DNA from: an uncultured Verrucomicrobiae bacterium
Lineage (GTDB): Bacteria > Verrucomicrobiota > Verrucomicrobiia > Limisphaerales > Palsa-1400
DNA: 64,000 bases
Assembly: GCA_963707025.1 (NCBI GenBank)
Contig: CAVPOM010000006.1
Location: forward strand, 576,001 to 640,000
Direction of reading: 5' to 3'
Shown: positions 13,075 to 64,000 of the stretch, in pieces
How positions within the stretch are numbered: the stretch's first letter is position 1
Layout of the letters: the number at the start of each line of letters is the position of its first letter
Position numbers and translations under genes: made by a program
Notes under the pieces: generated by a model
Told to the model about the DNA's origin: nothing
Seen by the model: only the letters and a program-made list of their open reading frames with translations
Database searches by the model: none

Positions 13075-15033
13075 GTTGCGCCAGTGAAGTTGGTTGGAAC
13101 GCGGGTGAAAGTCCCGTCCGTCGAATTAGGCTGTTCACGACGGAACACGACCTCAACAGCGCCGCCGCGAGGCGGGGTTGGAAGCTGAGGGAGATGAACA
13201 GACGGGCCGTAATGAAAATGAACCACATCCAATGAGCCTCGATAAGTTTAGAACCGGAGACAAGCCGAGCCGCTGTTTGACCGGCGAAGGCCGCAGGGAG
13301 GAGGCAGGGCAACAGTCAGAGCCTTCTCAACGCTCCGGCGGGGTCGGCGTGGACGGCACGTCTGGAAGTTCAACCAAGGTAAGCTGGGAGAACTCCGGCG
13401 GCGGGCGGCCAGCCCAACCGCCCGCGCAAGCTGGCAAGACCAGTCAGGCGAGCGGCCCTGCCGGAGAAGTCGGAGTTCCTCATAGTAGCGTGGACTTGTT
13501 TGCGCTCCAGGCGGATTTCCGCCGGGAGTTGCGCGAGCGAACGCAAAGGGGGAACACTTGCTCAATGCGTGGAGGCGAAGCGAAGGATGCGGGGATGGCC
13601 GGGGCGACCCGGATAGCAACCCCGGAGAAAGTTCGGCAGCTTCAAATCGCGCTCTATCGGAAAGCCAAAGCAGAGCCGAAGTATCGGTTCTGGAGCCTGT
13701 ATGGGGAATTGCTGCGCAAGGACGTGCTCGAAACCGCCTTGGCAGCGCAACAGCGCAACGGCGGGGCCGCGGGAGTGGACGGACAGAGTATGGAGTCCAT
13801 CACCGCCGACCCGGCCCTGCGCCAGCAATGGCTCGACCGCCTGCAAGCAGAACTCAAAGCCAAGACGTATCGGGCCAGCCCGGTGCGGCGGGTGATGATT
13901 CCCAAGAGCAGCGGAGGGGAACGGCCGTTGGGCATCCCGACGGTCAAGGACCGGGTGGTGCAAACGGCGGTGTATCTGGTGCTGATGCCGATCTTGGAGG
14001 CGGACTTTCATCCGCGCTCCTACGGCTTTCGGCCCAAACGCCGGGCACACCAAGCCATTGCGGAAATCCAACAAGCAGTGCAGCAAGGCTACGTGGAAAT
14101 CATTGACGCGGACCTGACGAAATATTTCGACACGATTCCGCACCGGGAACTGATGAAGGCCGTGGCCCGGCGGGTCAGCGACGGCAGCGTGCTGCGGCTC
14201 CTCAAGAGCTGGCTGCGCGCCCCGGTCGCGGAGGAAGACCAGGACGGCACCAAGCGAGTGATCCCCAACCGGCGCGGCACGCCGCAAGGCGGGGTCATCT
14301 CGCCGCTGCTGGCCAACCTCTACCTCAACCCGCTGGATCACGGGGTGAACGAGAAAACCTCCGGCCAAGCCCGCATGGTGCGCTACGCCGATGACTTTGT
14401 CATCGCGTGCGCGGCGGGGTGCGGCGGAGGGCTGATAGCGCGGCTCAAGAAATGGCTTCGAGCCAAAGGGCTGACCCTCAACGAAGTCAAAACCCGAATT
14501 GTGAACATTCGCAAGGAAGGGATCAACTTCCTGGGCTTCAACCTGACCTGGCGCAAGTCCTTTGGAGGGCGCGGCTACCTGCACGTTCAACCCAGCCAGA
14601 AAAGCCGGGGGGCCCTGCGCGAGAAACTGGGCGGCATCCTCAACCACTGGACGCAGGGGCGTCCGATACAGGAGGTGGTCAAAGAGGTCAACCAAGTCTT
14701 GCGCGGATGGGCGGGCTACTTCCACTACGGCAACAGCGTCTCGGTGATGAACCGGATGAAACACTACAGCCAAAACCGCTTTCGGCGCTGGCTGTGGCGC
14801 AAACACGGTTGCCGCCGCAGCCTGTGGGAACACTACGTTCCCGAGCAGTTGCACCAGCGTTATGGACTCTATGAACTGCCGACCACGGCGAAGTGGAAGG
14901 CGGCCCGATGAATGAGTTCGGAGAGCCGAATATGGGAAATCCGTCCGTTCGGTTCGATGAGGGGCGAAGTGGCAGCGCGAGACTGACAACTGCGGTCAGT
15001 TCAATCCGCCTCCTTCCACTTCGCCTACTCTAC
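13075..15033 (+). mobile_element. Group II intron, apparently complete
   Basis: 5' end GTTGCG/TTGCG at 13075-13076; domain V GAGCCG...GGAAATCC...CGGTTC at 14923-14955; domain VI ending CTACTCTAC; internal RT ORF; ends accurate to about 1 nt. Confidence 0.9.
13595..14911 (+). CDS. ltrA: Group II intron reverse transcriptase/maturase without endonuclease domain
   Basis: GVDG, RPLGIPTVKDRVVQ, SYGFRP, GTPQGGVISPLLAN, RYADD, FLGF, RGW..YF; no C-terminal HNH. Confidence 0.95.
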   Translation: MAGATRIATPEKVRQLQIALYRKAKAEPKYRFWSLYGELLRKDVLETALAAQQRNGGAAGVDGQSMESITADPALRQQWLDRLQAELKAKTYRASPVRRVMIPKSSGGERPLGIPTVKDRVVQTAVYLVLMPILEADFHPRSYGFRPKRRAHQAIAEIQQAVQQGYVEIIDADLTKYFDTIPHRELMKAVARRVSDGSVLRLLKSWLRAPVAEEDQDGTKRVIPNRRGTPQGGVISPLLANLYLNPLDHGVNEKTSGQARMVRYADDFVIACAAGCGGGLIARLKKWLRAKGLTLNEVKTRIVNIRKEGINFLGFNLTWRKSFGGRGYLHVQPSQKSRGALREKLGGILNHWTQGRPIQEVVKEVNQVLRGWAGYFHYGNSVSVMNRMKHYSQNRFRRWLWRKHGCRRSLWEHYVPEQLHQRYGLYELPTTAKWKAAR

Positions 15034-27430: not shown

Positions 27431-30400
27431 TCAGTTTCCCAGAATCCGATAAAACGCCGCCGCGTTGGTCGCCGGGATGATCAGGCCGTTGGTGTTGAGC
27501 AGCCCGCCGACATTGATCCAGTCCGTTGTGGCAAGATTGGTGTTCATTTGCACCTGGTACGGCCCGGCCCCGCCGCTCCAGTTCAATTGGAAATTGCCGC
27601 CTGCTATCAGCGCGGGGGCAGCGCCAATCGTAATGATGTCAGTGGTCACGCTGATCAACATCGTGGCCGTGCCGGACAGGCCGCCCGGATCGGTCACGCC
27701 CACGACGAAGCTATTCGTTCCAACATCGGTGCTGGCAGGCGTGCCGGAGAGCGCGCCGTTGGCTGCCACACTCAACCAGGCCGGACCGCTGATTTTCGAG
27801 AAGGCCAGCGTGCTGGCGAAATCATCCGGGTCGGTGGCATTGGTGGCGATGGCGCCCGCGTAAGCGTGGTTGGCCACCACGGCGGGCAGGGTGAAGGGGT
27901 TGGCCATAAACGACGGCGCCTGGTCGCCCGCCGGATAAAGATTGCCCTGGGGGATCACCTGCCAGGGCTGGTTGGGATTCGACCACGCTAATTGAGCCTC
28001 CGAGCTGCCGCCGTCGTTGTAATAATCCATTTCGATGTTATACTTTTGGCCGGCGGTGAGGACCAGGTTTGTGCTGTAGGTCGTAGGCCCCTCGTCCACC
28101 CACGCATTGGCGATCACAAGCTGGTTGCCGACCCAGAGCCGCCCTCCATCGTCCACGGTTATGTAGAACGTGTTGGTTCCGGTAAAAGGCGCCCTGACCT
28201 GGCCGGTCCAGCGCACCGCAAAATTTGTGACAGGCTGGCCGGGAGCGAACGGAGTGGTTCCCCAGGTGGTTTCGTTTATCCCCGGGTCAACCCGCGTCAG
28301 AACCAGGGGCGCCGCGCTGTCGTTGGTGATATAATTATTAAAGCTGGTGTAATTGGAGTAATAATGGCCGAGCAATCCCGTGCCGGCTCCCGGCGGATAA
28401 TTCGTTCCGGCAATAAAGTGGGCCTGAACTTGAGCGGCGCTTAACGGATAGTTGTAGAGCGCGACGTTCGCTATCGAACCCACGAACTGGTCGTTCCGAA
28501 CCGCCGCCGCGCTGGATTGCCGCGCTCCGATGTTCACCGGCGCGCCGCCGGCCGCCAATTCGCCTTCTCCCGGCGCTGGCTCGGAGGAAAAACCCGGGAT
28601 CGAATCCCCGTTGGCCGAACCGTCGAGGTAGAGGAACATGATGCTGTTGGCCTCGTCCACGACCCCGGCCAGGTGATGCCATTGGCCGTCGGCCGCGCCG
28701 CCGAGGTTGATCTGGTGAGCCAGGGTGTTGCCGGTGGCATCATGCCAGATCCAGCGGTAGGTGGTGCCGGAAACATCGAGATCGAAATTCTCCGTTCCAC
28801 CGCCGGCGCCTTGCGTCACGATGCCCGCGCCGTCGCCATTTTGCGAGGTGCTGAAATTGACCCAGGCTTCCACCGAGTATTCCGCGTTGCCGGAAACCAG
28901 CATCTGGGAGAAATCAATGCCCGCGATATTGCCGGCATAACTGTTGCTGGCGGCCGACGGGCCAAGGAGGTTCGTCTCACCAAAGGCCGCGGCGCAGTCC
29001 GGCTCGTCCGCCGGGATGCATGCTACTCCCAGCAAAACGCCGCCGAGGTATTGGCCGTTATGGTCGCCGACGTAATCATACGCCACCGTGCTGTTGGACG
29101 GCTCGTTCAAATGCCAGAAGGCGATGGGGTTGTCCGCCAGGATCCTCTGCACGTAAGCGCTGGTCAGCGCCGGCACGGCGATTACCGTCACCGTGCTGCT
29201 GATGAGCAAGTTAAGGGAGTTGGTGATGACGCACTTGTAGGTATTGGCGCCCGCCAAGGCATTGAACGTGTAAATCCCATTGGTCGCGCCGGGGATCGCG
29301 GTCGTGCCGTTTTGATACCACTGGAAGACGGGATTCCCGCCCTTGACCGCCACGGCATAGGTGAGCTGGCGGCCCGCATAGACGGTGATGGACAGCGGGC
29401 TTGGGTTGGTGAGCAGGGTGAGCGGGCCGGTCACAACGGAGAGGGGCGAATTGGCGCTCTGAATGCTGCCGTACTGATTTGTCACCACCACGTAATAGTT
29501 GCCGTCCTGGCCGGTTTGCACGCCGGTTAGAAAAAGGACGGCATTGGTGGCCCCCGCAATGGCCCCCCCTGGGCTGTGCCATTGATAGAAAAGAGGCGCG
29601 GTTCCCAGGGCCGTCACGCTGTTGCTCGCGGTGGTGCCCTGGTTGGGCTGCCAGGTCGTGAGTGGTTGTTGCGTGATAAAAGGCGCGACACCAGCCGACA
29701 AATACATTTGCTGAATCTGGTTCGAGGTGAGCGCATTGGCAAAGAGAGTGACTTCGTCGAACGCTTCCCCCGAACAGCCGGCCCGTTCCATAATCCGGCG
29801 CGCCGCCTATCCAGAAATCCGATGAATCCCCGCCCACCGTCTTTGCCGCGCTGTTGGCCCCGGCCAGTTGACCGTCCACATAGATATATTGCGCGGTGCC
29901 GCTATAGACGCCGGCCAATTGATGCCAGGTCGAGTTCGCCACGGAGCTCGGACCCACCACATCGCCATTGCCCCCGTCCGCGAAGTGAGGTTTATGGCTG
30001 GTATCCACGTCCAGGCGATAGGACGAGTCGCCTTTGCCCGCGACAGTTTGGAAATTGCCGCCGCCGGAGGTCTTAATCCACGCTAGCATGCTCATCGGAC
30101 CAGTAAAGTTAAGAGAGCTTCCGGGGATATCAATGTAGGCTGATACGCCGTTGAGTGACACGGCATAGTTGGGTGATCCCATTCCAGGATTAGGCGCTCC
30201 CGCCGCCTTGTTGACGACGCCGCCGACGTAGTTGCCGTTGTTGCCGCCGACATAATCATAGGCCACCGTTCCATTGGTTTCCTTCAGAGGCCAGAAGGCA
30301 ACCGGGTTGGCCGCCAGCACGGCCTGCTGGTATGGAGCAGGCGCCACGACCGTGACTGACACCACGCTGCTGGTGACAGCGCCCAGGGAGTTGCTCAACA

Positions 30401-33400
30401 CCGCCGTATAAGCGCCCGAGTTGGTCAGTCGCGCGTTGCTCAACGTGTAGCTGGCGCTGTTGGCCGCGGGGATGTTTGTCCCGTCGAATTGCCAATAGTA
30501 ACCCACTGGCACTGCCCCGTTGCCGGACACAGCGAAGGAGGCGCCCAGGCCCGTGAACAGAAAAAGATTGGTCAGCGCCGGTTGCTGCGTGATCACCGGT
30601 GTCCGGTAAACGGTCAGGATGGCGACGGAACTGGTGACGGCGCCGGCATTATTCGTCACCACTACATAGTAACTGCCAGCCTGGCTGGACTGAACGTCGG
30701 GCAGTGTCAGCGAGCTGGCGGTGGCCCCGCCTATCAGGCCAGCCGGACCATACCATTGGAAGGAGAGAGGCGGAGCGCCCATCGCCACCGCGCCAAAGGT
30801 CGAGCTTGACCCGATGACATTGTTGGTCGCGGACTGCGGCTGCAGCGTGATCGCCGGCTGGGGCGGCATCAGGTCCCCGCTCACTGCGAATACTCCCGAA
30901 TCCCCGGATGCGCCGGGCTTGGTAAAGGTGATGGACGAGACGGGCTGGTTGGATCCCAGCGCCGCAAGATTGATGGCAGTCTGATAAAGGTTGGGATTGC
31001 TGCTGCCGTTATTTTCGGTGGAAAGGCCGGAGTTATTCAAGTCCAGCCGGCCAAATCCTTGCAGGGCCACATTGGAGGTGGTGTTGAACCAATCCTGGGC
31101 GTTGAAATTAAAGGTGGAACTGGACGATCCATTGGCGAAATGGATCACGCACGTTCCTTGCGCTCCTCCGTTGGCCGAGGAGGCCAGCACCGCCAGGGTA
31201 TTATACGATTGCGGCGTTGTCAGGGTGAGCGTGCCGGAAACGGCATAGCCGCCGCCCATCAGCAGCACGTTCTGGCCGCCGTAAGGCCCGAATTGAAAGA
31301 CCGACGATCCATCCGCGGAACTGGTGAAAAGACCGCTGGCGGGCAGCCCCTGCGTGCCGCCGCTGCCTTGCACCGCGGGATTGGTATTCAACCCGGCTTG
31401 ATAGAAGGCGATATTGTTCGCGAGGTCGAATCCGGTCGCTCCTTTGTTGCCCGTGGTCGCGTTGGCCGGAACAATCACGCCCGCGTTGAATCCCGTGACC
31501 GCGATCGGAAAGTTGGCCGTCGAGACGGTCAAGGTGAACAGCCGGTATTCCACCACGGTGCTGGTCTGATTGGTGAACCAGACATTCGCCAGATAAACTC
31601 CTGTCTGCAAATTGCTCACGGCTGCCGCGTCCAAAGCCACCGTCACCGCCGCCGGGCCGCCTCCGGGCGTGAGCGTGCCGCCCACCGGCGAGACATCCAG
31701 CCAAGCCGGGCCGCCGCCCGCGCCCCAATTGAACGCAGCCGCGCCCGTGTTGGTCAGGGACAAGATCAGATTAGTGGCGATGGCGGCAGCGCCGTAAGGC
31801 TGGACGGCCGCGAAACCGACTCCGGGGGTGATTTGCAGCGCATCGGTCGGCGCCGCCAGGTAGTTGATCAAGGCTGCCCCGTTGGGACTGCCCCAACCGG
31901 TGGCCAGATCGTAACCGGGATAGGCGAAAAAGTTCGCCGGGCTGCCGCTGTTGGTGTCATTGCCCGTGGTTATATCATGGAAGAGGTTGGTATAGTTGGC
32001 CGACTTGCCTATGGCGTAAGCCGCCTGGTTCATGGACCCGATGGTGCCCCGCCCGTTGGCCAAGGCCTGTTGATTGATCAGCGCCGTAAAGCCCGCCCAC
32101 AACGGCGACGCCGCGCTCGTGCCGCCCACGGTTCCGCTTTGCCCGTCTTTAAGATACCAGAATAAAACCGTGTCCGCCAGAATGGACACGTCGGGGATAT
32201 TGCGCTGGGCGGTCGAGCCGCCGATGGCGGACATGTTGATGCCAAGTTGATAGCCCGGAATGGGATAATGCGGGCTGATCCCGCCGCCGCTGCCACGCCA
32301 GGTCGTTTCCGATTGCCACGGCCCGCCCGGGCTGCTCGTCGTCAGGGAAGTGCCGCCGACCGACGTGCAATTCGTGTCATCCGTCGGCGCAAAAATCGTT
32401 TGCGATGCATTATAGGCCCCGCCGTCGCCGGAGGAGGAAAAGAACGACTGCCCTTGCATCGCCAACTGCTGCAATACCTGGCTCTGGCCCGATGGCGGCG
32501 GATAATAGCCAAAGGAGCAACTGCATTGTTTGGCGAACCCATCCGAGGCCATGCGATCCAGGATGTCTATCGCGCTGTTGCCTTCATAGACGACCACCGA
32601 CGCGCCCGGCGCCATCGAGATCGCCATGTCAATGTCCAGCGCCTCTTCGCCGTCATCCGTGCCGGCGGGGGCCACGCCGGTCAGGTTGTCCAGCAGGACA
32701 TTGCTGATGACGATGTTGGCCGGCAGATGGGCATTGATTTCGTAAAGATACACGTCATTGGTAAAATAAGGACCGAACTCAAACAACCCAATGACCTGCC
32801 CGTAGCCCGTGAGACCGACGCCCGCCGCGTAGGCATTAGGCAAATCGGAGCCAAAGAAATCTCCGCCCGGGCCCGAACCCGTCGCATAGGCCACCTCCTT
32901 TGCATCCTGCCCTTTCACCACCAGATTCATCGGGCGCGGCGGCATGTAATCATCCAAGCCGCTCACCCCCAGGATCGGCAGATCGGCATCCACCGTCGGT
33001 TCGGCCTCGGGCGAATAGAAGGTGCGCGCCTCGGTCGGATGCTGATAAACCGCCAGCCTGATGTGAAACGCCCGCTCAATATCCGCCACCGCGCCGGCCG
33101 CGTCCACCAGCATGCGGTTTCCGTAAGTCCCCGTCACCGTCAGTCCCTGGGCCTGGGCAAAAGCGATCACCCTTTGATAATCCGCTTCGGTCGGTGCAAA
33201 GGCCGCCGCGAATTGCTCCGGCGCAAGCCACTGATGAAATTTCGGGCTGGCCGGGTCGTACAACTGCGCCAGCAGGTTGCTGAGCGCCCCCGGATTGCGC
33301 CAGGGCAAGGCGATGGCCAATTGCAGGCGTTTGGCGCCTTCCAGCCGCCCGGCCGCTTGCAGCTTCGTCATATCCATCGGCAGATGGCCGCGCAATATGC

Positions 33401-33590
33401 GCTGCTCTGCCGCACGCGCCGTCTGTGGGGCCAACAGCGTCCCAACCGCGCCCGCCGCGACCGCGAGCCACCCAAAAAAGTTCCGGCTGATCCTGCCATG
33501 CCGCTGGCGGGCGGGACACGCCGGTACGTCGGGCCGGGTCCCGACGACGAAAGCTGCATGACGGGGGAAACTCCATTGGTGCATGGTCAT
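27431..33590 (-). CDS. Giant S53 (sedolisin) protease with pro-domain, Ig, LamG, PA14 and cadherin-like domains; one apparent 1-nt insertion at about 29760 (about 2050 aa if corrected)
   Basis: EEALDID, SSGDGG, GGTSAASP, GYD..TGWGSP; PxITxQP Ig repeats; two LamG-like domains; FAVRWTG PA14. Confidence 0.85.
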
Positions 33591-49358: not shown

Positions 49359-52054
49359 ATGCCGCTGATTTGTTTGAACTGCAAGCGCCTGCGGCCTGCC
49401 AGCCTGCTGATGCTGGCATGGCTGGTGGGTTCGGACCTCGCCCCGGCCCAAACCAATCGGACCTGGATCGGCTCCGTCAGCAGCGATTGGTTTAATGCCA
49501 CCAACTGGACGCCCGCCGGTGTCCCGGCGTCCAACGACGTCGTCAACTTCACCAACGGCACCCTCGCCCTGACCGCGCCGGTCACGATCAACGGCCAGTT
49601 TAACTGGACTGGGGGAACGTTGAGCGGGAATCCCTTGACGATTGCGACCAATGGGCTGATGACCGTCAGTGGCAGCGCCACCCTCTTCCTGGAGAATTCG
49701 CTGACCAACGCGGGGACGGTGGTGATGACCAACAGCGGCAGGCTGGAGGTGAGCTATGCCAGCGTTTTCGGCTATTTCGGGCTGATCGAGAACCTGCCGG
49801 GCGCGCTGTGGGACATCCAGAACGACCAGGTTATGACCCCTTACTACGCCGGTCCGGCCTATTTCCACAACGCCGGCATACTGCGCAAATCGGGCCAGTC
49901 CGGCGCGACCACGATCTACGTCCCCTTCAACAACTCCGGCAGTGTGACGGCGCTGCAGGGCATGCTGGATTTCAATGGCGGCGGGACGCTGGCCGGGACC
50001 TTCACTGCCAGCAATGCGGCCTCCATCCTTTTTTCCGGAGGCGAGTTCACCAACTCCGTGCCGGCCACTGTCAGCGGGCCGGGTGTCGTCCAGTCCTGGG
50101 GGACAATCTGACCCTGCTGACGGATGTGATACCGAATCTGCCGATGGTGAACGGCAATCTCATTCTGGGCCCGGGTTTCCAAGGCGGCACCATCACCGAT
50201 CTGACCCTGGCCGGGTCCACGCTCTTGAGCACCAACACCGTCACGGGCGCCTTCACCTGGAGCGCCGGCACACTGGCCGGTCCACTGAACATCGCCACCA
50301 ATGCGCTGCTGACCATCACTGGCAGTGCCACCCATTACATGGACAATCCGCTGACCAACGCGGGGACGGTGGTCATGACCAACAGCGGCGGCCTGATCGT
50401 GAGCTACTCCAGCGGTGCGGGCTATTTCGGTGTGATCGAGAACCTGCCGGGCGCGCTGTGGGACATCCAGAACGATCAGAGCATTTCCCCTTACTACCTC
50501 GGGCCGGCCTATTTCCACAACGCCGGCACTCTCCTCAAATCGGGCCACACCGGAACGACCACGATCTACGTCCCCTTCAACAACTCCGGCAGTGTGACGG
50601 CGCTGCAAGGCACGCTGGATTTCAATGGCGGCGGGACGCTGGCCGGAACCTTCACTGCCAGCAATGCGGCCTCCATCCTTTTTTCCGGAGGCGATTTCAC
50701 CAACTCCGTGCCGACGACGATGAGCGGGCCGGGTGTGGTGCGGTTGACGGGAGGCACTCTGACGCTGCTGACGGATGAGATAGCCAATTTGCCGCTGGTT
50801 AACGGCAACCTCATTCTGGGCCCCGGCTTCCAAGGCGGCACCATCACCAATCTGACCCTTTCCGGGTCCATGCTCGTGAGCACCAACACTGTCACGGGCG
50901 CCTTCACCTGGATGGCCGGCACGCTGGCCGCTCCCCTGACCATCGCGAGCAATGGGCTGCTGACTCTCGGCGGCAGCGCCACCCATTACCTGGAGAATAC
51001 GCTGACCAACGCTGGGACGGTGGTCATGACCAACAGCGGCGGCCTGGTCACGAGCTACCTCGCCTCTTTCGGCTATTTCGGGCTGATCGAGAACCTGCCG
51101 GGCGCGCTGTGGGACCTCCAGAACGACCAGAGCATCTATAACAACGAACTCGGTCCGGCCTATTTCCACAATGCCGGCACTCTCCTCAAATCGGGCCAGA
51201 CCGGCGCGACCACATTCTACATCCCCTTTACCAACTCCGGCACGGTGACGGTTCTAAAGGGGACGGTGGCGTGGAACGGCGGTTTTACTCCGGCGGGCGG
51301 CGAACTCCTTTTTGGTTTGAGCGGTCCGGCCAGCTTCGGGCAGATGAGTATTTCGGGCAATGCGACCCTGGGCGGCACTGTGGGCGTGATTTGGCTTAAT
51401 GGATTTGTGCCGGCCAGCGGCAATTCATTTCCCGTGCTCAACTACGGCTCGTACACCGGGATTTTTACCAATACAGATCTTCCCACCGCGGCTCTGTGGC
51501 AAACCAATTACGGCCCCACTACCTTTACCATCTCCGTCGCCACCATCAACAAGCTGGTCTTCACCACCGAACCAATGGGAGGGAAGCTGACCAATGAGGT
51601 CCTGGCGCCGGTGGTGGTGCAGGTCGAAGACCCCGCCGGCAACCCGGTGGCGACCAATGGCCTGGCGGTGACGCTTTCCTTGGCCAGCGGCAGCGGCCAA
51701 TTGAGCGGGACGCTGACTCAGAACACCGACCCCGCCGGCCAGGCCACCTTCAGCGATCTGAGCATTAGTCTGGTTGGGGCAAAAACACTTCGCGCTTCGT
51801 CACCGGAGTTGACGGCGGGGGCGAGCACGGTGTTTGGGATTGTGCCTCTAATCGGAACACTCTGGACGCGCAACGGTATCGAGCTGCAGTTAAATGGCAC
51901 GAACAGTCTGGGATCCACCATCATCTACGCTTCCACGGACCTGAGTTCCTGGACACCCATTTACACCAATGCGCCCACCAATGGCGTCATCACATTTCTC
52001 GATCCTGCTTCGACGAATTTCCCGCGGCGGTTTTATTACATCGAGCAGCCGTGA
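49359..52054 (+). CDS. Secreted beta-helix-like repeat protein with ~217-aa internal repeats; one apparent 1-nt deletion near 50094 (about 898 aa if corrected)
   Basis: Signal peptide; W..A.NWTP.GVP...D.V; repeat anchors at 49791, 50441 and 51092 (spacing 650 then 651). Confidence 0.8.
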
Positions 52055-55939: not shown

Positions 55940-57330
55940 CTAGAACCCAACGTCCTCTCCCTTGGGCTTCAAACTGATGAGGTAGGCCACCATATCGTCC
56001 AGTTCGGCGTCCTTGATGACGGCGCCCCAGGCGGGCATGTAGAGGGGCGGCGGCGGGCGTTTTGGGTCAAGCGCGGGAATTTCGCGCTGGCCTTTCAGGA
56101 TGCGGTTTTTCAACTCCGCTTTCGTGTAGCCCTCGGCGACGCGAATCAAGCCCGGCACTTGTTCGGCGGTTTTGGCGTTCGGATTGGGCACGCCACCCTT
56201 GGCCTCGGCGCCGTGGCAGCCGGCGCAACCGTATTTGCGGTAGGTTTCGCGGCCGCGCTCCGCCGGATCCATCAACGAGGGCAAGCTGGACGCCAGGTTG
56301 CGTTCCCGCAGGTGCAGGAGAAACTCCGTCAGCGCGCGGGCTTCGGTTTCGGTGAAGCCAAATCTGGGCATGACCGAGCCGGGGGTGACGCTCTGGGGAT
56401 CGCGGAAATGCTGCAACATCCACTCCGGCGAGCGGCGCAGGCCCACATCGTCCAGCACCGGACCGACCTTGCCGCCCTGGCCGGCCGACGGTGTGGCAGC
56501 CAATGCAACCCTTTTGCTGGAATAAACGCTGGCCTTCGTCGGCGCTGGGGATGACTTTCATGGAAGCGTAATAGCCCGGCGCCGCTTCGCCGGTCAGGCT
56601 CAACATGAACAAAACAATCGCTTCGAGGTTCGTCTCGGAAAATTTCTGTGGCGGCATGGCGGAGCCGGGCGTGACGGCGGCGGGTGCCAGGAAATGTTTC
56701 TTCAGCCATTCCGGCGCGCGCCGCGTTCCGACCTTGTCGAGTTCCGGCCCGATGTTGCCGCCCGCGCCGCCGAGTTTGTGGCAGCCGCGGCAACCACTCG
56801 CCTCAAAGAGCTGCTGGCCCTGTGCCAGTTCCGGTGCGGCCGGATTGTCGGCCGCCTGGTGGCACTGGCCGCAGGAGGCCTGGATGTATTGCAACGGCAG
56901 CATGGGCTGATCCCAATGCGGCCACCGCGCCATGAGCGTCCGCCGTGGTGGTGGCGCGGCCCTGGCCGCGATGGCAGATGGTGCAGCCGAATTTTTCAAA
57001 GGGGTGCTGCTCGTGCTGGGGATGGTAGGCCAGGGGTTGCGGGTAGCCGCCGTAGCTGGGGTCTTCCACCGCCAGATGGCAGGTCGTGCAGCGATCCACC
57101 CGGTTGAGTTCCGGCAGGAGAATTTGCCGGACTTCGACCGGCGTGCTCTCGGCGATGGCTTTTTGCTGCGGTGTGACGGCCCGGCGAATTTCTTCCTGCA
57201 CGAATTTGCGCTGGTAATCCTTCCATTCGCGATACTCGTCCTTGTAGTAGCCCAGGACGACCAGTCCGCCGACCAGCAAGCCCAGGAAGGTGAACCATCC
57301 GTAAAACCTGAGCATGGCGCCGTGGTTCAT
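55940..57330 (-). CDS. Membrane-anchored hexaheme cytochrome c; apparent indels near 56925 and 56485
   Basis: N-terminal TM; CTTCH, CTICH, CGQCH, CRGCH, CIGCH and CAGCH across three joined frames; MP distal Met motifs in the last three domains. Confidence 0.85.
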
Positions 57331-57331
57331 G

Positions 57332-58623
57332 TCAGCGGCCTTCCGTCATGGCGGGCGGTTGCCGCCAAGGCTCTACCCAGCCCCAATTCGGTCCGCGGAA
57401 AAAGGTGCCGATGACGGTAAAGACAATGGCGGCCAGCAGGCAGATCGTGAAGATCGTGTTGGCCACCACCCGCTCGCGGGCAAACCAGCGGCCCACCCCC
57501 GCCCGTTGGCGGTCCAGGTAAGGCAGCAGCAGCAGCGCCGTCACCAGCAAGCCCGGGACGACCACCCCGCCCCAGAAGGCGGAATAGCTGACCAGTTCCT
57601 GCAGGCCGAGAAAGTACCACGGCGCCTTGGCCGGATTGGGCGGATGGATCGGGTTGGCAAATTCCTCCAGCGGCGCATTCCAAAAAATCGCCAGGAACAA
57701 CACCACCGCCGTCACCAGCAGGAACAGCAGAATCTCGCGAAAGACCAGATGCGGCCACGAGAACACTTCGTCCTCCGGGTTCTTGCCCACCTGCGGGGTG
57801 GTGCCGCGTGCCAGTTCCATCAGCCCGTAGCTCTTGTTCGTCGGCAACTGGCCGGTCGGAATTTGCTGCGACGACCTCGTCCGCTTCGTCCGGCCGCGAC
57901 AACCCGCCGTCCTTGCGCACGCGCCACAAATGAACCGCCACCATCAATACAGCCAGCGTCGGCAGCACGATCACATGCAGCGCGTAAAACCGGGTCAGCG
58001 CCTCCTGCCCGACCACGTTGCCGCCGAGCAAAACGATATTTCAGCTTCAGCCCGATGACCGGGGCGTAGCCGGCGATGTTCGTGCCGACGGTGATCGCCC
58101 AGAACGCCAGTTGATCCCACGGCAGCAGGTAACCCGTGAAACTCAGGCCCAGCGTCAGCAGAAAGAGTCCGACGCCGATGACCCAGTTGAATTCGCGCGG
58201 CCGTTTGTAAGCGCCGGTGTAAAAGACGCGGCACATGTGCAGCAGCACGAACAGCACCATCAGGTGCGCGGCCCAGCGATGCATGTTGCGGACGAGCAAT
58301 CCGGCGGAGACCACAAACTGCAAATCCTTCATGGTGTTGTAGGCGCTGGCGGTGCTCGGCACGTAATAAAACATCAGCAGCACGCCGGTGCCGATGAGGA
58401 TGAGGAACAGGTAGAGCGAAATCAGTCCCAGTCCGAGCGAGTAACCGGCCTTGAGGGAATGTTGGTGGACCTTGGCCGGCTGGAGGTGCAGCAGGAAACT
58501 GGAGGTCATGGCCTGCGACCGCTCCAGATTGCTCTGGGGCAGGCCGACGCGGAAGATGGAGCGGCCCACGCGCGTGCGCGCCAGTTTTTGCCAGAGGCGG
58601 GTGAGGAGGGGCGCGTTCATCAT
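57332..58623 (-). CDS. Cytochrome b6-like plus subunit IV-like region (one fused gene with indels near 58032 and 57865, or split)
   Basis: RNMHRW..H...[28 protein letters not shown]...[10 protein letters not shown]. Confidence 0.85.
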
Positions 58624-59112
58624 CAAGCTTTGGTCGGCAGAACCAGGTATTTGTCGGCGGCGACCGTGCTGATTTTTGTCCACCAGCAGCCGGTTGTCCT
58701 TGCTCAGCGTCACCTGAAACCAGGCCAGAGCGCGGGGCGCCGGCCCGCTTTTCACGCTGCCCTGGTCGTCAAAAACGCTGCCGTGACACGGGCAGTGATA
58801 GCCTTTTTCAGCGCGGTTGACCGTGCAGCCCAGGTGGGTGCAATTGGCCGAGAGGCAGCGGTAAGTGTTGCCCTGGCGAACCAGAAAAACCCGTTCCTCC
58901 TCCAGAAACGTCACCGAGCCATCGGGAAAATCATCCGGCTTGCCGGCCTTGAAAACCTGGCTCGGCTCGAAGAGCACGTTCGGCACCAGAAACCGCACCG
59001 CGCCGGCGGCGGACAGGGCCATGGCGAAGGTGCCGGCCAGCCAGCCGAGGGTGAGCTGGAAAAATCCGCGGCGCGAAACGCCGTTTTGGCCTGGGGGCGT
59101 GGCAGGGTTCAT
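58623..59112 (-). CDS. Rieske 2Fe-2S protein; apparent extra A near 58675
   Basis: Tat motif SRRGFF + TM; CTHLGC and CPCHGS; GPAPR.L. Confidence 0.92.
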
Positions 59113-61038
59113 CAGGCGGGCACAAGTTCGACTCGTTCCATCGTGATCGCGCCCGTCGGACAACGCACCGCGCACAGGCCGCACCGGATGCACCGGGTTT
59201 CGTCCTTGATGATCGCCGCCTTGTTCGCCCGGGAGCGGGCACGCGGCCGTAACGGGCGAGAAAGGCCGCCTGCAAATTCTCGTTGCCGCGCAAATGGGCG
59301 GCATCCACCAGGCGCAGGCAATACTCCGGGCAAACGTCCGCGCAGCCGCCGCACAGAATGCACTCGTCGCCGTTGAACACCGGGCCAACGTGGCATTTGA
59401 GGCAGCGATCCGCCTGGCGGCGCGCGGCGGCTTCCGGATAAGTTTTTTCCACTTCGGCGATCCCGATGCGGCGATCCATCGGCAGCGTCGGCGGGGCCTG
59501 CCGCGCGAATTTTTCGTAATCCGGCTTCATCCGGTATTGCTGGGTGTTGAAAATGGTCACGCGGGCCTGCTGGGGTTCGGCGGGCACCGTGCCGGTGAGA
59601 AATTTGGCGATGGATTTGGCCGCGCGCTTGCCTTCGGCCACCGCGGTGATGATGATGCGCGGGCCAAACGCCACGTCGCCACCGGCGAAAACATCGGGCC
59701 GTGATGTGGCCATGGTCAGCGGATCGGTTTGCAGCGTGCCGCGCGGCGTCAGCTTCAAATTGTCGTGCGGGCTGGATCCACGCCAGATCGGCCGCCTGGC
59801 CGATGGCCAGCACCACGGTGTCGCAGTCCACCGTTTCCTCGCTGCCTTCGATGAACTGCGGGTTGAAACGGCGGTTCTCGTCGAACACCCGGCTGGCCTG
59901 GATGAGTTCGATGCCGGTGACTTTGCCGTTCAGACCGAGAATCCGTTTCGGGCCGAAGCGGGTGTGCAGTTGGATGCCTTCTTGTTCGGCTTCCTCGATT
60001 TCCTCGCGGGCCGCCGGGATTTCGTCCAGGCTTTCCAGGCAATACATGTGGACCTCCGGCACGCCGCTTGCGGATGGCTTCACGCGCCACGTCCAGCGCC
60101 AGCCGCACTTCATCGGGCGCTTCCGGTCCTTGGCGGTCAATTCTTCCAGCGCGGCGGCGGCCTGATGCAAGGCGACGCGCAATTCGGCTTCGCTCATGCC
60201 GGCGAACTTCTCGGCCTGGCGCACGACCGAGCGCGCCACGTCGAAGGCCACATTGCCGCCGCCGATGACCACGACTTTGCGGCCGAGGGAAACCCGAAAA
60301 CCGAGGTTGACATTGAGGAGAAATTCGATGGCGCGCAGCACCCCGTCGTTTTGCACGCCTTCGATGGAAAGCTCGCGGCTCTTGTGGGCGCCGATGCCCA
60401 GGAAGATGGCTTCGTAGCCCTGTGCTTCAGATCGGCCAGCAAGAAATCCCGGCCCAGCCGGCGAATTCAGGCGAATCTCCACCCCCAGGGATTCGATGGC
60501 CCCGATCTCGGCGCGGATGATGTCCCGGGGCAGCCGGTATTCGGGCACGCCCAGCACCAGCATGCCCCCCGCGACGTTGTGCGCCTCGAAGACCGTCGGC
60601 GAAAAACCCATCAGGGCCAGTTCATGCGCGCAGGACAAGCCCGGCCGGGCCGGCGCCGATGACCGCGATCTTGCGTCCGCCGCCGGCCCGTTCGCGTCGC
60701 GCGTCGCGCAGTTGGGGATAAACGCGGCCCAGATCAAAGTCGTCGGACTCGACACCGAACTTTTCGCAGACGAAACGTTTCAAGGCACGAATGGAAACGG
60801 CGGCGTCCAGCGCGCCGCGACGGCATTTGGCCTCGCAGGGCGCGGCGCAAACCCGGCCGCAGATCGAGGCGAACGGGTTGGGGGTGCGGGCGATGACGTA
60901 GGCGTCATCATAACGGCCCTCCGCAATGGCCTGCACGTAGCCGCCAGAGTCCGTGCGCACCGGGCAGCCCTCGCGGCAGAGCACCTGCCGGGAGAAATAA
61001 TTCACGTCCGGCAGTTCGACTGAATAGGTCGTGGGCAT
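59112..61038 (-). CDS. GltD/SudA/Nfn-like FAD- and NAD(P)-binding Fe-S oxidoreductase with C-terminal 2x[4Fe-4S]; several apparent indels
   Basis: [64 protein letters not shown]. Confidence 0.85.
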
Positions 61039-61064
61039 TTTCAGCCGTTCGGTTGGCTGGCGAA

Positions 61065-61560
61065 TTATTTGCCGTCGTACTTGTCGTGAAGTTCCTTGAT
61101 CTTGGTTTCCGCGGTCGTTTTTTCTTCCGGCGTGGCCTTGGCGAGTTTGTCGTCCACCATGGCCTTTTTGCGCACGCTGGAGTCATAGGCCAGGAACTCG
61201 TAGATCTTCTTGCCGTCGGCCGCGTTGATGTTCGAACCGGGCTTGTTCATCATGCGCTTGATGTAGCGGGACCATTCGTCGGGGAGCGCGTAGTCCGAGT
61301 TGATGGGGCGGCTCAACTTGTGGCACTGCGAGCATTTCTGGGTGAAAAGCTGCGTAGTTGTCCTTGATGACATCCGGGTATTTGGAAACATCAACCGTCG
61401 CGGGGCCTTTCTCGAAGCGCTCAACGCGCGCCTTGGTTTCAGCATCCATTGTCTGCGCGGTGGCGCGCCACAGGCCCGCGCCGGAGATGCCGAGCACAGC
61501 CGCCCCGGCGAGGGCGGCGGCCAGTCTTGTTGTCATTTTCATAAGAGTCATTTTGTTCAT
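61065..61560 (-). CDS. Periplasmic monoheme cytochrome c; apparent extra base near 61347
   Basis: Signal peptide in one frame, F.QKCSQCH...W..YI.RMM.KP in the next; joined by removing one T of a T4 run. Confidence 0.8.
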
Positions 61561-62910
61561 TTAGAATCCGTAGGAGAGTTGAAACACAAACGAAGTGGGA
61601 GGCAGGGCGCCGGGACCGCGGCTGTGCATCCATTCGTAGTCGCCCTCGAACCACAACGTGTTGGAAAAGTAATAGACATAGCCTGCGGTGTAGCGTTCTG
61701 TTTTGGTTCCCTGGCCGTCGTTTTCGCAATCAAAGCGGCCGACCAACTCGATATTGTTGATGTAGGGAAGATCCAGATTCAGGCCGGACAGTTTGTAGCC
61801 CGCCTGGGTCCACCATCCATGGGGATCGAGTTGGCCCAGGTCGTCGCTGCCGTACCACGTTTGGATATACTCGCCCTTCAGTTCAAAGTTGGGGCTGAGG
61901 TGGATGGCGGCATCCAGCACGCCGGCCGACCAGAGGTGGCTCCCGTTATCGCTCCAAGAGCCGGTCTGGCCTGAAACCCCCAGTTCCAGATCATAGTGAG
62001 GCGCCCAGGGGTAAAACCAACCGAGGCGGCCGCCGCCGCTGGGATCCGCATGCCAGTTCGGCGTGTCGCCCACATTGCCGCCCAGATCCAGCGCGCTGGC
62101 GTTGGCCATCGAGTTGCTGGCGCCGGAGGACGGTCCGTTGACCCCGTAAACCGAATAGGTGACCATCTGCCCGGACTCACCCACCGGGACGGCCCCGCGC
62201 AACTGGACGCCCACGCCGCTGGCCGGCAGAACGTCCCGAACCAGCGGGTCATCCGGGATCTTGTTGAGCCAGCCGGCGCCCCGCTCGCTATACGTGCCCA
62301 GCGGCAGCAGCATGTCGCCCGCCACCACCGTCACGTAATCGTTCCAGAGATAATCCAACTGGCCGAAACTCATGCTAAAGGAGGTCGAACTGCCTGGAGC
62401 ACGGTTGCCGTTCTGATCCACGTTGTTGTTCAGAATGGTGTCGAATCCCGCCTCGACCAGCACGTTGTCGCTGGCGCGGAACAGGAAAATGGGAGCAAAA
62501 TCAGCCAGGGCAAAGGCGCTGTGCTGCCCGGCCGTTTTTCCAAATTGCGCCTCGGCATCCCCGACAATGGTGAAGTTGTGCATCGGCCCCTGGGAGGCGT
62601 TGACGACGGGATAGGTGGATTGCACCTTGGCCACATTGTCGGCCGTCTGTTGCGCGTTGGTGGCGGCGGTTTTGGTTTCGCCCAACTGCTTTTGCAATTG
62701 CTGGATGACTTGTTGGTCTTGTTCGTGCGCCTTCTGGTCCTGCTCGTGGGTCTGCTCGAGCTTCTGGACTTTGTCGCCCAATTGTTCGACCATTTTCTTC
62801 AAGGCATTGAAGTCGTCGGTGCTCACTTGGGCCGAGGCCCGCTGGGGCAGAACCGCCCCCAGCGCGCAGGCGGCGGCCAAAGCTCCAAGAATCAGGGAAG
62901 TTTTTTTCAT
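61561..62910 (-). CDS. Outer-membrane beta-barrel (porin-like) with N-terminal coiled coil
   Basis: Signal peptide, Q/E/K-rich coil, amphipathic aromatic strands, terminal QLSYGF BAM signal. Confidence 0.8.
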   Translation of the reverse strand: MKKTSLILGALAAACALGAVLPQRASAQVSTDDFNALKKMVEQLGDKVQKLEQTHEQDQKAHEQDQQVIQQLQKQLGETKTAATNAQQTADNVAKVQSTYPVVNASQGPMHNFTIVGDAEAQFGKTAGQHSAFALADFAPIFLFRASDNVLVEAGFDTILNNNVDQNGNRAPGSSTSFSMSFGQLDYLWNDYVTVVAGDMLLPLGTYSERGAGWLNKIPDDPLVRDVLPASGVGVQLRGAVPVGESGQMVTYSVYGVNGPSSGASNSMANASALDLGGNVGDTPNWHADPSGGGRLGWFYPWAPHYDLELGVSGQTGSWSDNGSHLWSAGVLDAAIHLSPNFELKGEYIQTWYGSDDLGQLDPHGWWTQAGYKLSGLNLDLPYINNIELVGRFDCENDGQGTKTERYTAGYVYYFSNTLWFEGDYEWMHSRGPGALPPTSFVFQLSYGF

Positions 62911-62927
62911 GGGTCAAATCCTCTGGT

Positions 62928-63293
62928 TTAGTTGCTGCTCTCCTCCTGGAGGTACTTGAGCACCTCCCTGGCCTGCGGCGCGGGAAGGTTGGCCCGGACG
63001 CGCATGTGCGTCAGGACCGTCTTCCACTGGGACGGCGTGAATTCGGTGGGATACCGTTCCGCGTGGCAACGGCTGCAGTTGATGGCATACAAATCGGCGC
63101 CGGTGAGCTTTTTTGCCATCTGCTTCTCTTTGGTGTCTTTGGTCTCCTTGTTGGCGCCGGCGGCCGCGGTGTTCGTGGATTGCGGGTCGGCGCAGGCGAC
63201 CAACACGCCGGACACCACGCAGATGGCCGCCGCCAGGGCCGCGAGACTGAGCCAGGCCCGCAGCCGCAACTTCAATGGATGGGAACGCTTCAT
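62928..63293 (-). CDS. Small exported monoheme cytochrome c
   Basis: Signal/possible lipobox LVAC; G..LY..NCSRCH...W.....HMRVRANL. Confidence 0.82.
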   Translation of the reverse strand: MKRSHPLKLRLRAWLSLAALAAAICVVSGVLVACADPQSTNTAAAGANKETKDTKEKQMAKKLTGADLYAINCSRCHAERYPTEFTPSQWKTVLTHMRVRANLPAPQAREVLKYLQEESSN

Positions 63294-63470: not shown

Positions 63471-64000
63471 TTAAAAAGGCAATTGCGCGCGCAACGTCTC
63501 GCGGTATTCCGTCGGCGCCATCCCGACAATGCGCTTGAACACGCTGTTAAACTGGGGAATGGAGCCGAAGCCGGCCGCGTAAACCACTTCGGAGATCCGC
63601 AGCGAGGAATCCACCAGCAGCGTCTTGGCTTTTTCCACGCGCACCCGCGCCACGTATTCGGTCAGCGTCATGCCCGCGCCTTTTTTGAAAAGCTTGCAGA
63701 AATAAAACCGGCTGACATGCACATGCCGGGCCACTTGCGCCAGCACGATCGGCTCCTCCACGTGGGTTTGGACAAACTGCTTGGCGCTGACCACGGCCAC
63801 CGGTTCTTCATTGGCGCTGGCCAAAACCTGGCGGCTGGCGTAATCGGTCAGATATTGCGCGAACACGGTCAGGAGTTGAATGATCGCCTCGAATCGTTCC
63901 GCATCCACCACCGGCGTCTCGAAATAAGCCTTGCGCGCCTTCTTCTCCCACTCGGCGCTTTGCCCGAGCAGGGCGGCCACCATTTTGAAATCGCGCTCTG
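63471..64000 (-). CDS. AraC-family transcriptional regulator (5' truncated by window edge)
   Basis: VS.FYFCKLFKK..G, R.EKAK.LL, GF.SI.QFN..FKR..G..P..YR. Confidence 0.9.
   Translation of the reverse strand, partial: ERDFKMVAALLGQSAEWEKKARKAYFETPVVDAERFEAIIQLLTVFAQYLTDYASRQVLASANEEPVAVVSAKQFVQTHVEEPIVLAQVARHVHVSRFYFCKLFKKGAGMTLTEYVARVRVEKAKTLLVDSSLRISEVVYAAGFGSIPQFNSVFKRIVGMAPTEYRETLRAQLPF

Follow-up and report, generated by a model that had tools for sequence, protein, structure and literature searches.

A conserved verrucomicrobial operon joins a Rieske/cytochrome b-flavoprotein module to a porin with a predicted monohaem plug

Does one bacterial operon connect the cytoplasmic NAD(P)H pool with the outer membrane? 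The question is raised by a window of 64,000 nucleotides from an uncultured Verrucomicrobiae bacterium (Limisphaerales, Palsa-1400; assembly GCA_963707025.1, contig CAVPOM010000006.1, positions 576,001 to 640,000), in which the original prediction had posited a complete wire between the NAD(P)H pool and the outer membrane. On the minus strand, seven co-oriented genes occupy 63293 to 55940, encoding in 5' to 3' order a small cytochrome c (c1), a porin, a second cytochrome c (c2), a flavoprotein, a Rieske protein, a cytochrome b, and a hexahaem cytochrome c. The gene content originally predicted was borne out by CxxCH motifs and by Pfam matches to a porin-like barrel (weak), cytochrome c, Fer4_20 plus Pyr_redox_2 plus Fer4, Rieske, and the N- and C-terminal halves of cytochrome b. 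The predicted tight packing is seen in the junctions: counted from gene 1, the first three gaps are 17, 0, and 26 nt, the next two junctions are TGATG overlaps (1 nt for the first of them), and the last gap is 1 nt. The verrucomicrobial host and the upstream AraC gene were also correctly called: relatives are titled Verrucomicrobiota, and an AraC-family regulator with a PocR sensory domain (63471 to 64000, minus strand; 295 aa, extending beyond the window end) lies 177 nt 5' of gene 1. This gene is found upstream of most full operons, is absent upstream of some, and is likely the regulator of the seven genes. A promoter scan of the operon gave nothing above chance, no clear terminator was found at its end, and the search of sequencing runs returned no RNA run among those listed (best DNA share 0.16).

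Gene models were set by an intact copy of the operon (L017; porin identity 92%), with products of 135, 449, 164, 640, 162, 428, and 462 aa. Of 18 porin-anchored GTDB loci, 9 had all seven genes in this order. The synteny spans families and classes of Verrucomicrobiota, which excludes a chance association of the seven genes; the operon is real and conserved. Porin and flavoprotein, on whose linkage to the Rieske and cytochrome b genes the wire had been staked, are kept with them in other loci. The link is modular, as the majority of c1-porin loci lack any Rieske/cytochrome b gene, and the operon is two joined modules: Rieske, cytochrome b, hexahaem cytochrome and flavoprotein on the one hand, porin and c1 on the other.

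The window copy carries 14 single-base frameshifts in five of the seven genes: eight indels in the flavoprotein gene and inserted bases in those for c2 (near 61353), Rieske (near 58672), cytochrome b (near 58035 and 57868), and the hexahaem cytochrome (near 56921 and 56486). This load, in about 5.6 kb, is well beyond that of control ORFs (88 indels in 205.6 kb of 133 ORFs, 0.43 per kb), and only 1 of 15 single-base gaps lies inside a run of at least three. Both observations would suit a recent pseudogene cluster confined to this strain, with the family alive elsewhere. Against it, the operon has no nonsense codon, its dN/dS values (0.08-0.18) are no higher than those of intact neighbours (0.14-0.23), and strain-specific changes at conserved columns number 16, compared with 34 in an intact relative. 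Moreover, insertions make up 12 of the 14 indels, and the one at 58035 is missing from a nearly identical contig (5 differences over 388 nt). Single-base gaps also occur in 44 of the 133 control ORFs. Because the operon displays no sign of decay, the frameshifts are likely assembly errors, as the original prediction had allowed; a dead operon is quite improbable.

The Rieske protein (58623 to 59112) has a twin-arginine anchor and a 14-residue motif with a Ser/Phe signature identical to that of Kustd1480. Its two best PDB matches are the anammox proteins Kuste4569 and Kustd1480 (9rk4, 2.5e-22; 9rk3). By sequence it appears to be of the Kuste4569/Kustd1480 type with the high-potential signature; for Kustd1480 a potential of +335 mV was measured (PMC12954380). 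Cytochrome b (57332 to 58623) is a fused cytochrome b6 and subunit IV, a single 428-aa chain in intact relatives, with the four haem histidines and the Qo motif KAPWY. The haem ci motif CxGG is replaced by GLGL; none of 70 fused cytochromes b has the ci Cys, against 13 of 25 split ones, and the motif's two positions are taken by Leu, Trp, Tyr, Phe, or Thr. All 95 related cytochromes b have His45, and Arg235 occurs in 66 of 66; Lys236 is conserved. The His45-Arg235 spacing is 190, against 204 reported for anammox. Glu295 (56 of 66) may retain part of an N-side quinone site. His45 was rejected as a marker of the flavoprotein link, being also present without an adjacent flavoprotein in five loci with enough flank.

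The flavoprotein (59112 to 61038) is a GltD/NfnA-like FAD protein with neither signal peptide nor membrane helix. Its Cys ligands (21/25/64/68/72/545/548, 559-569, and 615-625) form four Fe-S cluster motifs, and Lys87 stands at the place of the fourth ligand of the FAD-proximal cluster. The anammox oxidoreductases likewise have four clusters and a Lys at the proximal one (PMC12954380). These features, with the Rieske matches, uphold the resemblance to anammox Rieske/cytochrome b complexes noted originally. CLE in place of YRR weakly suggests NAD rather than NADP as cofactor. A ninth CxxCH, CLKCH at 59404, was dismissed as a haem site; it sits in the flavoprotein at an Fe-S ligand position. The hexahaem cytochrome (55940 to 57330) has six CxxCH motifs and an N-terminal helix that would anchor it in the membrane; genes 1 and 3 have one CxxCH each. 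Periplasmic c2 (61065 to 61560) matched no named family and is likely a periplasmic shuttle.

The porin gene (61561 to 62910) is intact and encodes a signal peptide, a coiled coil, and a predicted 16-strand barrel (AF2 pLDDT 92.9) whose best fold match is OprP (Z 28.0, rmsd 3.0, 305 aligned). Its neighbour c1 (62928 to 63293) carries CSRCH and an invariant HM; a lipobox is confined to the genus of the window. The pairing is nearly fixed: of 35 porin-first loci, 34 have c1 next to the porin, as do 29 of the 30 c1-first loci, and the two exceptions lie at contig ends. Strong c1 matches (E < 1e-20) occurred in 40 of 301 sampled genomes of the order. Co-folding of c1 with the porin scored 0.88 (best of three controls, 0.01), with at least 94% of contacts agreeing between runs and partner pLDDT of at least 87; the mark used, which 116 of 157 solved pairs and 2 of 215 mismatched ones reach, is roughly applicable to this pair. 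c1 is thus predicted to plug the periplasmic mouth of the 16-strand porin, with the side deduced from contact positions. Ile42, Leu44, and Leu52 face the lumen and are conserved hydrophobics, and acidic residues outnumber basic ones among the conserved charges. The fold search contained no solved porin-monohaem complex, an absence that is not proof, and no two-gene plug-and-barrel was found in print. A search among longer proteins for a c1-porin fusion, a weak test with only seven candidates scored, yielded solely an AraC fusion. Among 150 porin representatives, five have an N-terminal monohaem domain of another type; as c1 still adjoins such fusions, the domain is not a fused c1. A sixth N-terminal motif match, P0162, was a read-through.

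In five sister loci (L074, L088, L094, L081, and L113) a Cyc2-type gene replaces the c1-porin pair. The first three also share c2, and the gene of L074 is modelled as an N-terminal haem domain followed by 16 strands. In a quick flavoprotein tree, from which L028 was excluded and in which the row 'L043_PorC1' is a mislabelled unrelated paralogue, the sister operon with the Cyc2-type gene is nested inside the same clade. With sister-locus genes rather than characterised Cyc2 as reference, hhalign of the porin with Cyc2-type barrels gave 4.7% and 7.2%; the barrel profiles do not align, and homology of the porin to Cyc2 was not detected. FARQ/FARK, the motif of Cyc2, is absent from the window and the genome; a motif of this type is seen at the N terminus of Cyt572. 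The c1-porin pair thus has in common with Cyc2/Cyt572 the 16-strand OprO/P-like barrel, one haem c predicted on the periplasmic side (in models only), and the operon slot. It differs in consisting of two genes with neither fusion nor FARQ/FARK, and the invariant Met of c1 is a likely second ligand.

By the chemistry of the quinone site, the flavoprotein forms one arm and the periplasmic haems the other, joined at the quinone; NAD(P) and pore would therefore lie on opposite arms of a quinol bifurcation and not along a linear wire. In this respect the original prediction lacks support in the form given, and the pore part comprises one haem in a 16-strand barrel, with no multihaem conduit. The reading we tentatively prefer, at somewhat less than an even chance, is a menaquinol-bifurcating Rieske/cytochrome b-flavoprotein complex joined to the c1-plugged porin, with the high-potential electron going to a dissolved oxidant, e.g. 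soluble Fe(III). The complex would oxidise menaquinol and split its two electrons. One would pass from Rieske through the hexahaem cytochrome, c2, and c1 to an acceptor in the pore. The other would pass from haem bL through bH, a dimer-interface haem bridged by His45, and the four Fe-S clusters to FAD and NAD+. Loss of the haem ci motif and the bulky pocket residues would shut the normal quinone-reducing site, favouring the NAD+ route. In its favour, sister modules have high-potential sinks as neighbours: genes for NapA-like and NapG/H-like proteins at L040 and a cbb3-like oxidase at L039, both scoring below NCBIfam cut-offs. Also in its favour, the host genome encodes complex I, a bd oxidase, two haem-copper oxidases, and the futalosine route to menaquinone, and RuBisCO was not found in it (88% completeness). 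Rnf/Nqr was not found either. The flavoprotein-linked complex likely makes NAD(P)H. Quinol-driven NAD(P)H formation has been proposed for anammox since 2013 and is unproven even there, quinone reduction at haem cN being the main obstacle (PMC12954380).

Several observations weigh against this bifurcating reading. By our estimate it needs a sink near +300 mV or higher, which most Fe(III) oxides and humic quinones would not provide. His45 does not mark the flavoprotein link, Glu295 may keep part of the N-side quinone site, and most c1-porin loci do without Rieske/cytochrome b. The host is a sugar-degrading heterotroph with a PntB transhydrogenase and has little obvious need for uphill NADH. APWY has been proposed to mark reverse-running complexes (PMC4122944), and in the accessible part of PMC13741234 the only function shown for Cyc2 is inward Fe(II) oxidation: Fe(II) is bound in the barrel and its electron relayed to a periplasm-side haem. 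Together with the Cyc2-type genes in the five sister loci and the haem domain plus 16 strands of the L074 product, the last two points favour inward flow, in which c1-porin would be a Cyc2-like oxidase of Fe(II) or another soluble donor. Electrons would then fill c2 and the hexahaem cytochrome. From there they could drain to the oxidases, with the Rieske complex generating NAD(P)H from quinol, or each could join an NADH electron at Qo to reduce menaquinone. The host's separate multihaem clusters could in that case serve Fe(III) reduction. However, RuBisCO was not found, an external supply of electrons to the haem pool competes with the high-potential arm, joining an NADH electron to one from Fe(II) at Qo would presumably cost proton-motive force and bypass complex I, and Cyc2 homologues occur in Fe(III)-reducing taxa too (PMC6344600). 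We consider inward flow unlikely, though a serious contender.

Closest to the wire first proposed is a scheme in which electrons from NADH pass through the flavoprotein into the b haems and a residual quinone site on the N side, and leave via the pore by a modified Q-cycle, giving a fermenter an external electron dump. It suits a heterotroph with surplus NADH; the CLE residues suggesting NAD and the retention of Glu295 and Arg235 also speak for it, and a moderate-potential acceptor would presumably suffice. This NADH sink is nevertheless improbable: the ci motif is lost to bulky residues, Arg235 replaces a bc1-type Qi histidine, complex I is present and more efficient, and Hauser et al. reject such a sink for anammox complexes on energy grounds. 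Least probable, and very much so, is a solute channel like OprP/ExtI that admits an oxyanion or small substrate to the periplasmic cytochromes, with no electron exchange at the outer membrane. The best fold match is indeed the anion porin OprP, the Geobacter ext cluster joins such a porin to Rieske/cytochrome b and is linked to selenite uptake (PMC5877670), and the cytochrome b scores 268 bits against ExtP (cut-off 290). Yet c1 is predicted inside the barrel mouth, the lumen has conserved hydrophobics and an acidic excess, only 2 of 82 porin family members match ExtI, and weakly, and the operon has no terminal reductase.

A bolder version of the bifurcating reading, which we regard as doubtful, is that c1-porin is a hitherto unrecognised, independently evolved two-gene Cyc2 equivalent that is widespread in soil Verrucomicrobiota, extends beyond them, and is interchangeable with Cyc2, here wired to a Rieske/cytochrome b complex that has lost its quinone-reducing site and splits menaquinol electrons between NAD+ and external iron. 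If true, the pair would be a surface iron redox protein of a new class, overlooked by current marker sets, and the complex would allow quinone-based NAD(P)H formation to be tested more cleanly than in anammox. A compact, conserved gene set without the cN motif bears on whether Rieske/cytochrome b complexes make NAD(P)H by quinol bifurcation. The c1-porin pair bears on whether bacteria have a monohaem porin for iron redox other than Cyc2; it consists of two small genes expressible in E. coli, and it would escape Cyc2- or MtrAB-based surveys of iron cycling in soil and peat.

The accessible parts of PMC13510729, PMC9386147, and bioRxiv 2020.09.22.307553 contain nothing on the seven-gene operon, and those of PMC5600118 already describe cytochrome b with oxidoreductase neighbours outside anammox. 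The Kuenenia stuttgartiensis complexes Kuste4569-4574 and Kustd1480-1485 resemble the operon in their Rieske protein and in having a cytochrome b of the b6 type. Their FAD oxidoreductase, too, has four clusters and the Lys at the proximal one, a multihaem c stands where cytochrome f would be expected, and the operon has candidate His and Arg/Lys residues that may correspond to those of their predicted dimer haem. In contrast to their split cytochrome b, the operon has cytochrome b and subunit IV fused; it lacks the haem cN motif and an HAO-like octahaem protein, adds c2, c1, and porin, and belongs to a host that is not an anammox organism. With the APWY clade (Kao and Hunte 2014) and subfamily G, clade G' (Dibrova 2017), it shares APWY, the Ser/Phe Rieske signature, a long cytochrome b without CxGG, and a large conserved operon including an oxidoreductase; the accessible text names neither Verrucomicrobia nor a porin for these clades. 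Geobacter extHIJKLMNOPQS (cbc6) likewise combines an OprP-like porin, c cytochromes, and Rieske/cytochrome b. ExtP, ExtQ, and ExtS are best or near-best NCBIfam matches, but all fall below cut-off (268/290, 82/150, and 83/100 bits); the window porin has no ExtI match, ext has no flavoprotein, and the operon has no rhodanese or ExtKL. In MtrAB/MtoAB, PCC3, and PCC4 a porin gene also neighbours cytochrome genes and a quinone module of the inner membrane, but these systems are multihaem wires in larger barrels (decahaem, 24-32 strands in MtrAB/MtoAB), whereas the operon has one haem and 16 strands.

The operon lies in the window (G000:C6:576001-640000) of a 6.96-Mb genome, G000, that is 88% complete. 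Six-frame reading of the minus strand from 63293 to 55940 yielded seven genes spaced -1 to 26 nt apart, which bears out the tight, co-oriented packing claimed in the original prediction. They encode a small monohaem cytochrome (c1), a porin, a periplasmic monohaem cytochrome (c2), a flavoprotein, a Rieske protein, cytochrome b and a hexahaem cytochrome c. Frameshifts were present in five of the seven genes. Full-length analyses of the proteins were performed with L017, a Verrucomicrobiota MAG locus with all seven genes intact and a porin 92% identical to that of the window, instead of the frameshifted copy.

Comparison with L017 revealed 14 single-base coding indels (12 insertions and 2 deletions) from c2 to the hexahaem gene. 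The control background, 133 ORFs on 20 stretches of the same relative, contained 88 such indels in 205.6 kb, with at least one in 44 ORFs. Indel density in the operon was thus ∼6-fold higher, which counts against assembly error, although some single control ORFs were about as dense. No nonsense codons were detected in the operon genes in the comparison with L017. The dN/dS values were 0.077-0.177; genes without frameshifts (araC, porin and glycosyltransferase) gave 0.137-0.229. Strain-specific changes at positions invariant across four outgroups numbered 16 in the window copy and 34 in L017. The insertion at 58035 was absent from a near-identical contig of sequencing run X1. Judged from these sequence comparisons, the indels are likely assembly errors.

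Conservation was assessed in porin, order and phylum locus sets, which overlap and contain kin that are not independent. A porin search of GTDB retrieved 18 loci, 9 of which kept the full gene order. A cytochrome b search of the phylum (matches in 10 of 301 genomes) recovered the complete operon in another two families. The other porin loci stopped at a contig edge (four), had a dihaem cytochrome c instead (two), carried a different, PEWY-type Rieske/cytochrome b pair with a monohaem c and without flavoprotein (two), or held an ACIII/Qrc-like cluster (one, Ignavibacteriales). Within the order, cytochrome b matched in 14 of 301 genomes; c1-porin was in the same run in nine, split over contig ends in two and replaced by NrfC/NrfD-like genes in one, and the remaining two loci were cut short. 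The flavoprotein lay within 5 kb for 62 of 95 related cytochromes b but not for 5, the remaining 28 being on stretches too short to tell.

Several related loci had other arrangements. At L035 and L223, a close flavoprotein-Rieske-cytochrome b-hexahaem module without porin follows tetrahaem c, Fe-S and NrfD/DsrP-like genes; in L223 two genes are inserted between Rieske and cytochrome b. A second, PEWY-type Rieske/cytochrome b pair with a nine-haem cytochrome directly follows the operon in L027 (17548-20940) and L030. L113 lacks the flavoprotein and has a small 2x[4Fe-4S] ferredoxin gene (9387-9746) between Rieske and cytochrome b. Distant flavoprotein-Rieske-cytochrome b-multihaem modules at L040 (G218:C3), L038, L039 and L041 are followed by NapA/NapG/NapH-like or cbb3-like oxidase genes.

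The closest solved structures to the Rieske protein were the anammox proteins Kuste4569 and Kustd1480. Cytochrome b kept the four haem histidines with b6 spacing, with GLGL where CxGG was expected and APWY in place of PEWY. The flavoprotein was nearest to NfnA-type subunits, with four cluster motifs and Lys87 at the proximal cluster; CLE replaced the YRR loop, which is linked to NADP. According to Hauser et al. (PMC12954380), anammox complexes share the b6-type cytochrome b and the four-cluster flavoprotein with its proximal lysine, have measured potentials of +303 and +335 mV and a predicted His-bridged dimer haem, and face their chief difficulty in the reduction of quinone at haem cN. In the operon cytochrome b, His45 and Arg235/Lys236 are conserved and the cN motif is lost. 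Dibrova et al. (2017, PMC5600118) note oxidoreductase neighbours of cytochrome b "in many other cases," and also a clade whose long cytochromes b belong to large operons with no known function; Fig. S1 of that work may already contain a window-type operon. The APWY clade was defined as uncharacterised, with reverse operation suggested, in the available text of Kao and Hunte (PMC4122944).

The porin was modeled as a 16-strand barrel (pLDDT 92.9) with OprP as nearest fold. Of 35 porin-first loci, 34 had c1 next to the porin, and the two were likewise adjacent in 29 of the best 30 c1-first loci. Six weak c1 matches had no porin beside them in widened context and are another class. When 34 loci with strong c1 matches were widened, the operon was full in five and cut off partway in two; most others had c1-porin plus one soluble cytochrome, without Rieske/cytochrome b. 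The c1 lipobox was not general among its relatives. Co-folding of c1 and porin with haem scored 0.88 against 0.01 for the best control, with 91-99 contacts, agreement of at least 94% and partner pLDDT of at least 87; the mark, attained by 116 of 157 solved pairs and by 2 of 215 mismatched ones, is only roughly applicable to c1-porin. Because the modeled contacts alternate along strands near short turns and involve the in-folded loop, c1 would be seated in the periplasmic mouth of the barrel. A PDB sequence search found no complex resembling c1-porin, and Cyc2, the monohaem porin-cytochrome known as an Fe(II) oxidase, is still without solved structure according to the available text of a 2026 review (PMC13741234). 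Some porins of the operon family carry a class I cytochrome c tethered at the N terminus (P0193, P0244, P0249, P0270, P0271; L207, L213, L214), with c1 still adjacent wherever context was seen.

From 600 metagenome matches, 80 loci were kept, many of them too short to tell; an operon-type porin lay near cytochrome b in five and a Cyc2-motif gene in five. Locus L074 has the order araC, c2, flavoprotein, Rieske, cytochrome b (77% identical), hexahaem and a Cyc2-type gene, the product of which is modeled with a small haem domain and 16 strands; c1 and porin were not found within 10 kb. In a quick flavoprotein tree, L074 fell inside a 19-row clade (support 98) with 16 rows from porin-c1 operons, and a second porin-c1 group lay elsewhere. 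No profile alignment was obtained between the window-type porin and the Cyc2-type barrel. Given the shared slot and similar predicted fold, c1-porin is Cyc2-like in operon position and predicted shape, but not a Cyc2 member. NiFe hydrogenase genes, a possible quinol source, lie directly upstream of the Cyc2-type operon (L074:3000-6010).

The midpoint potentials of menaquinone and NAD are approximately -74 mV and -320 mV. Splitting of quinol electrons to NAD would, by estimate, require a sink above ∼+170 mV, or ∼+300 mV with the membrane potential paid. Sister modules adjoin nitrate-reductase-like and cbb3-like genes, which fits an outward high-potential arm, and the only sink within the window operon is the pore. 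We tentatively favour such an arm ending at the c1-porin pore. Inward electron flow through c1-porin, for which the swap with a Cyc2-type gene speaks, appears rather unlikely. The flavoprotein complex might serve as an NADH sink, but this would require a working N-side quinone site and is improbable. Least likely of these readings, and very doubtful, is that the porin is a plain solute channel, as in the Geobacter ext cluster described in the available part of PMC5877670.

In the accessible text, figures aside, of the open-access literature, including PMC6344600 and PMC5566968, neither the seven-gene operon nor the two-gene monohaem-porin was found. Elsewhere in the window, 13178-14911 (+) holds an ORF for the reverse transcriptase/maturase of a group II intron (RVT_1, GIIM). 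At 27431-33590 (-), two overlapping frames encode a secreted protein of very large size that combines pro-kumamolisin, Ig, LamG and PA14 domains; the split is probably another assembly frameshift. A repetitive secreted protein also spans two overlapping frames (49359-52054, +), the longer piece without Pfam match. Separate multihaem clusters in G000 (C6:709639-731898, C7:36248-37165 and C18:42516-52478) encode 5-9 haems per ORF and NrfD-like proteins; that on C18 comprises a pentahaem c, an NrfD-like gene and an oxidase.
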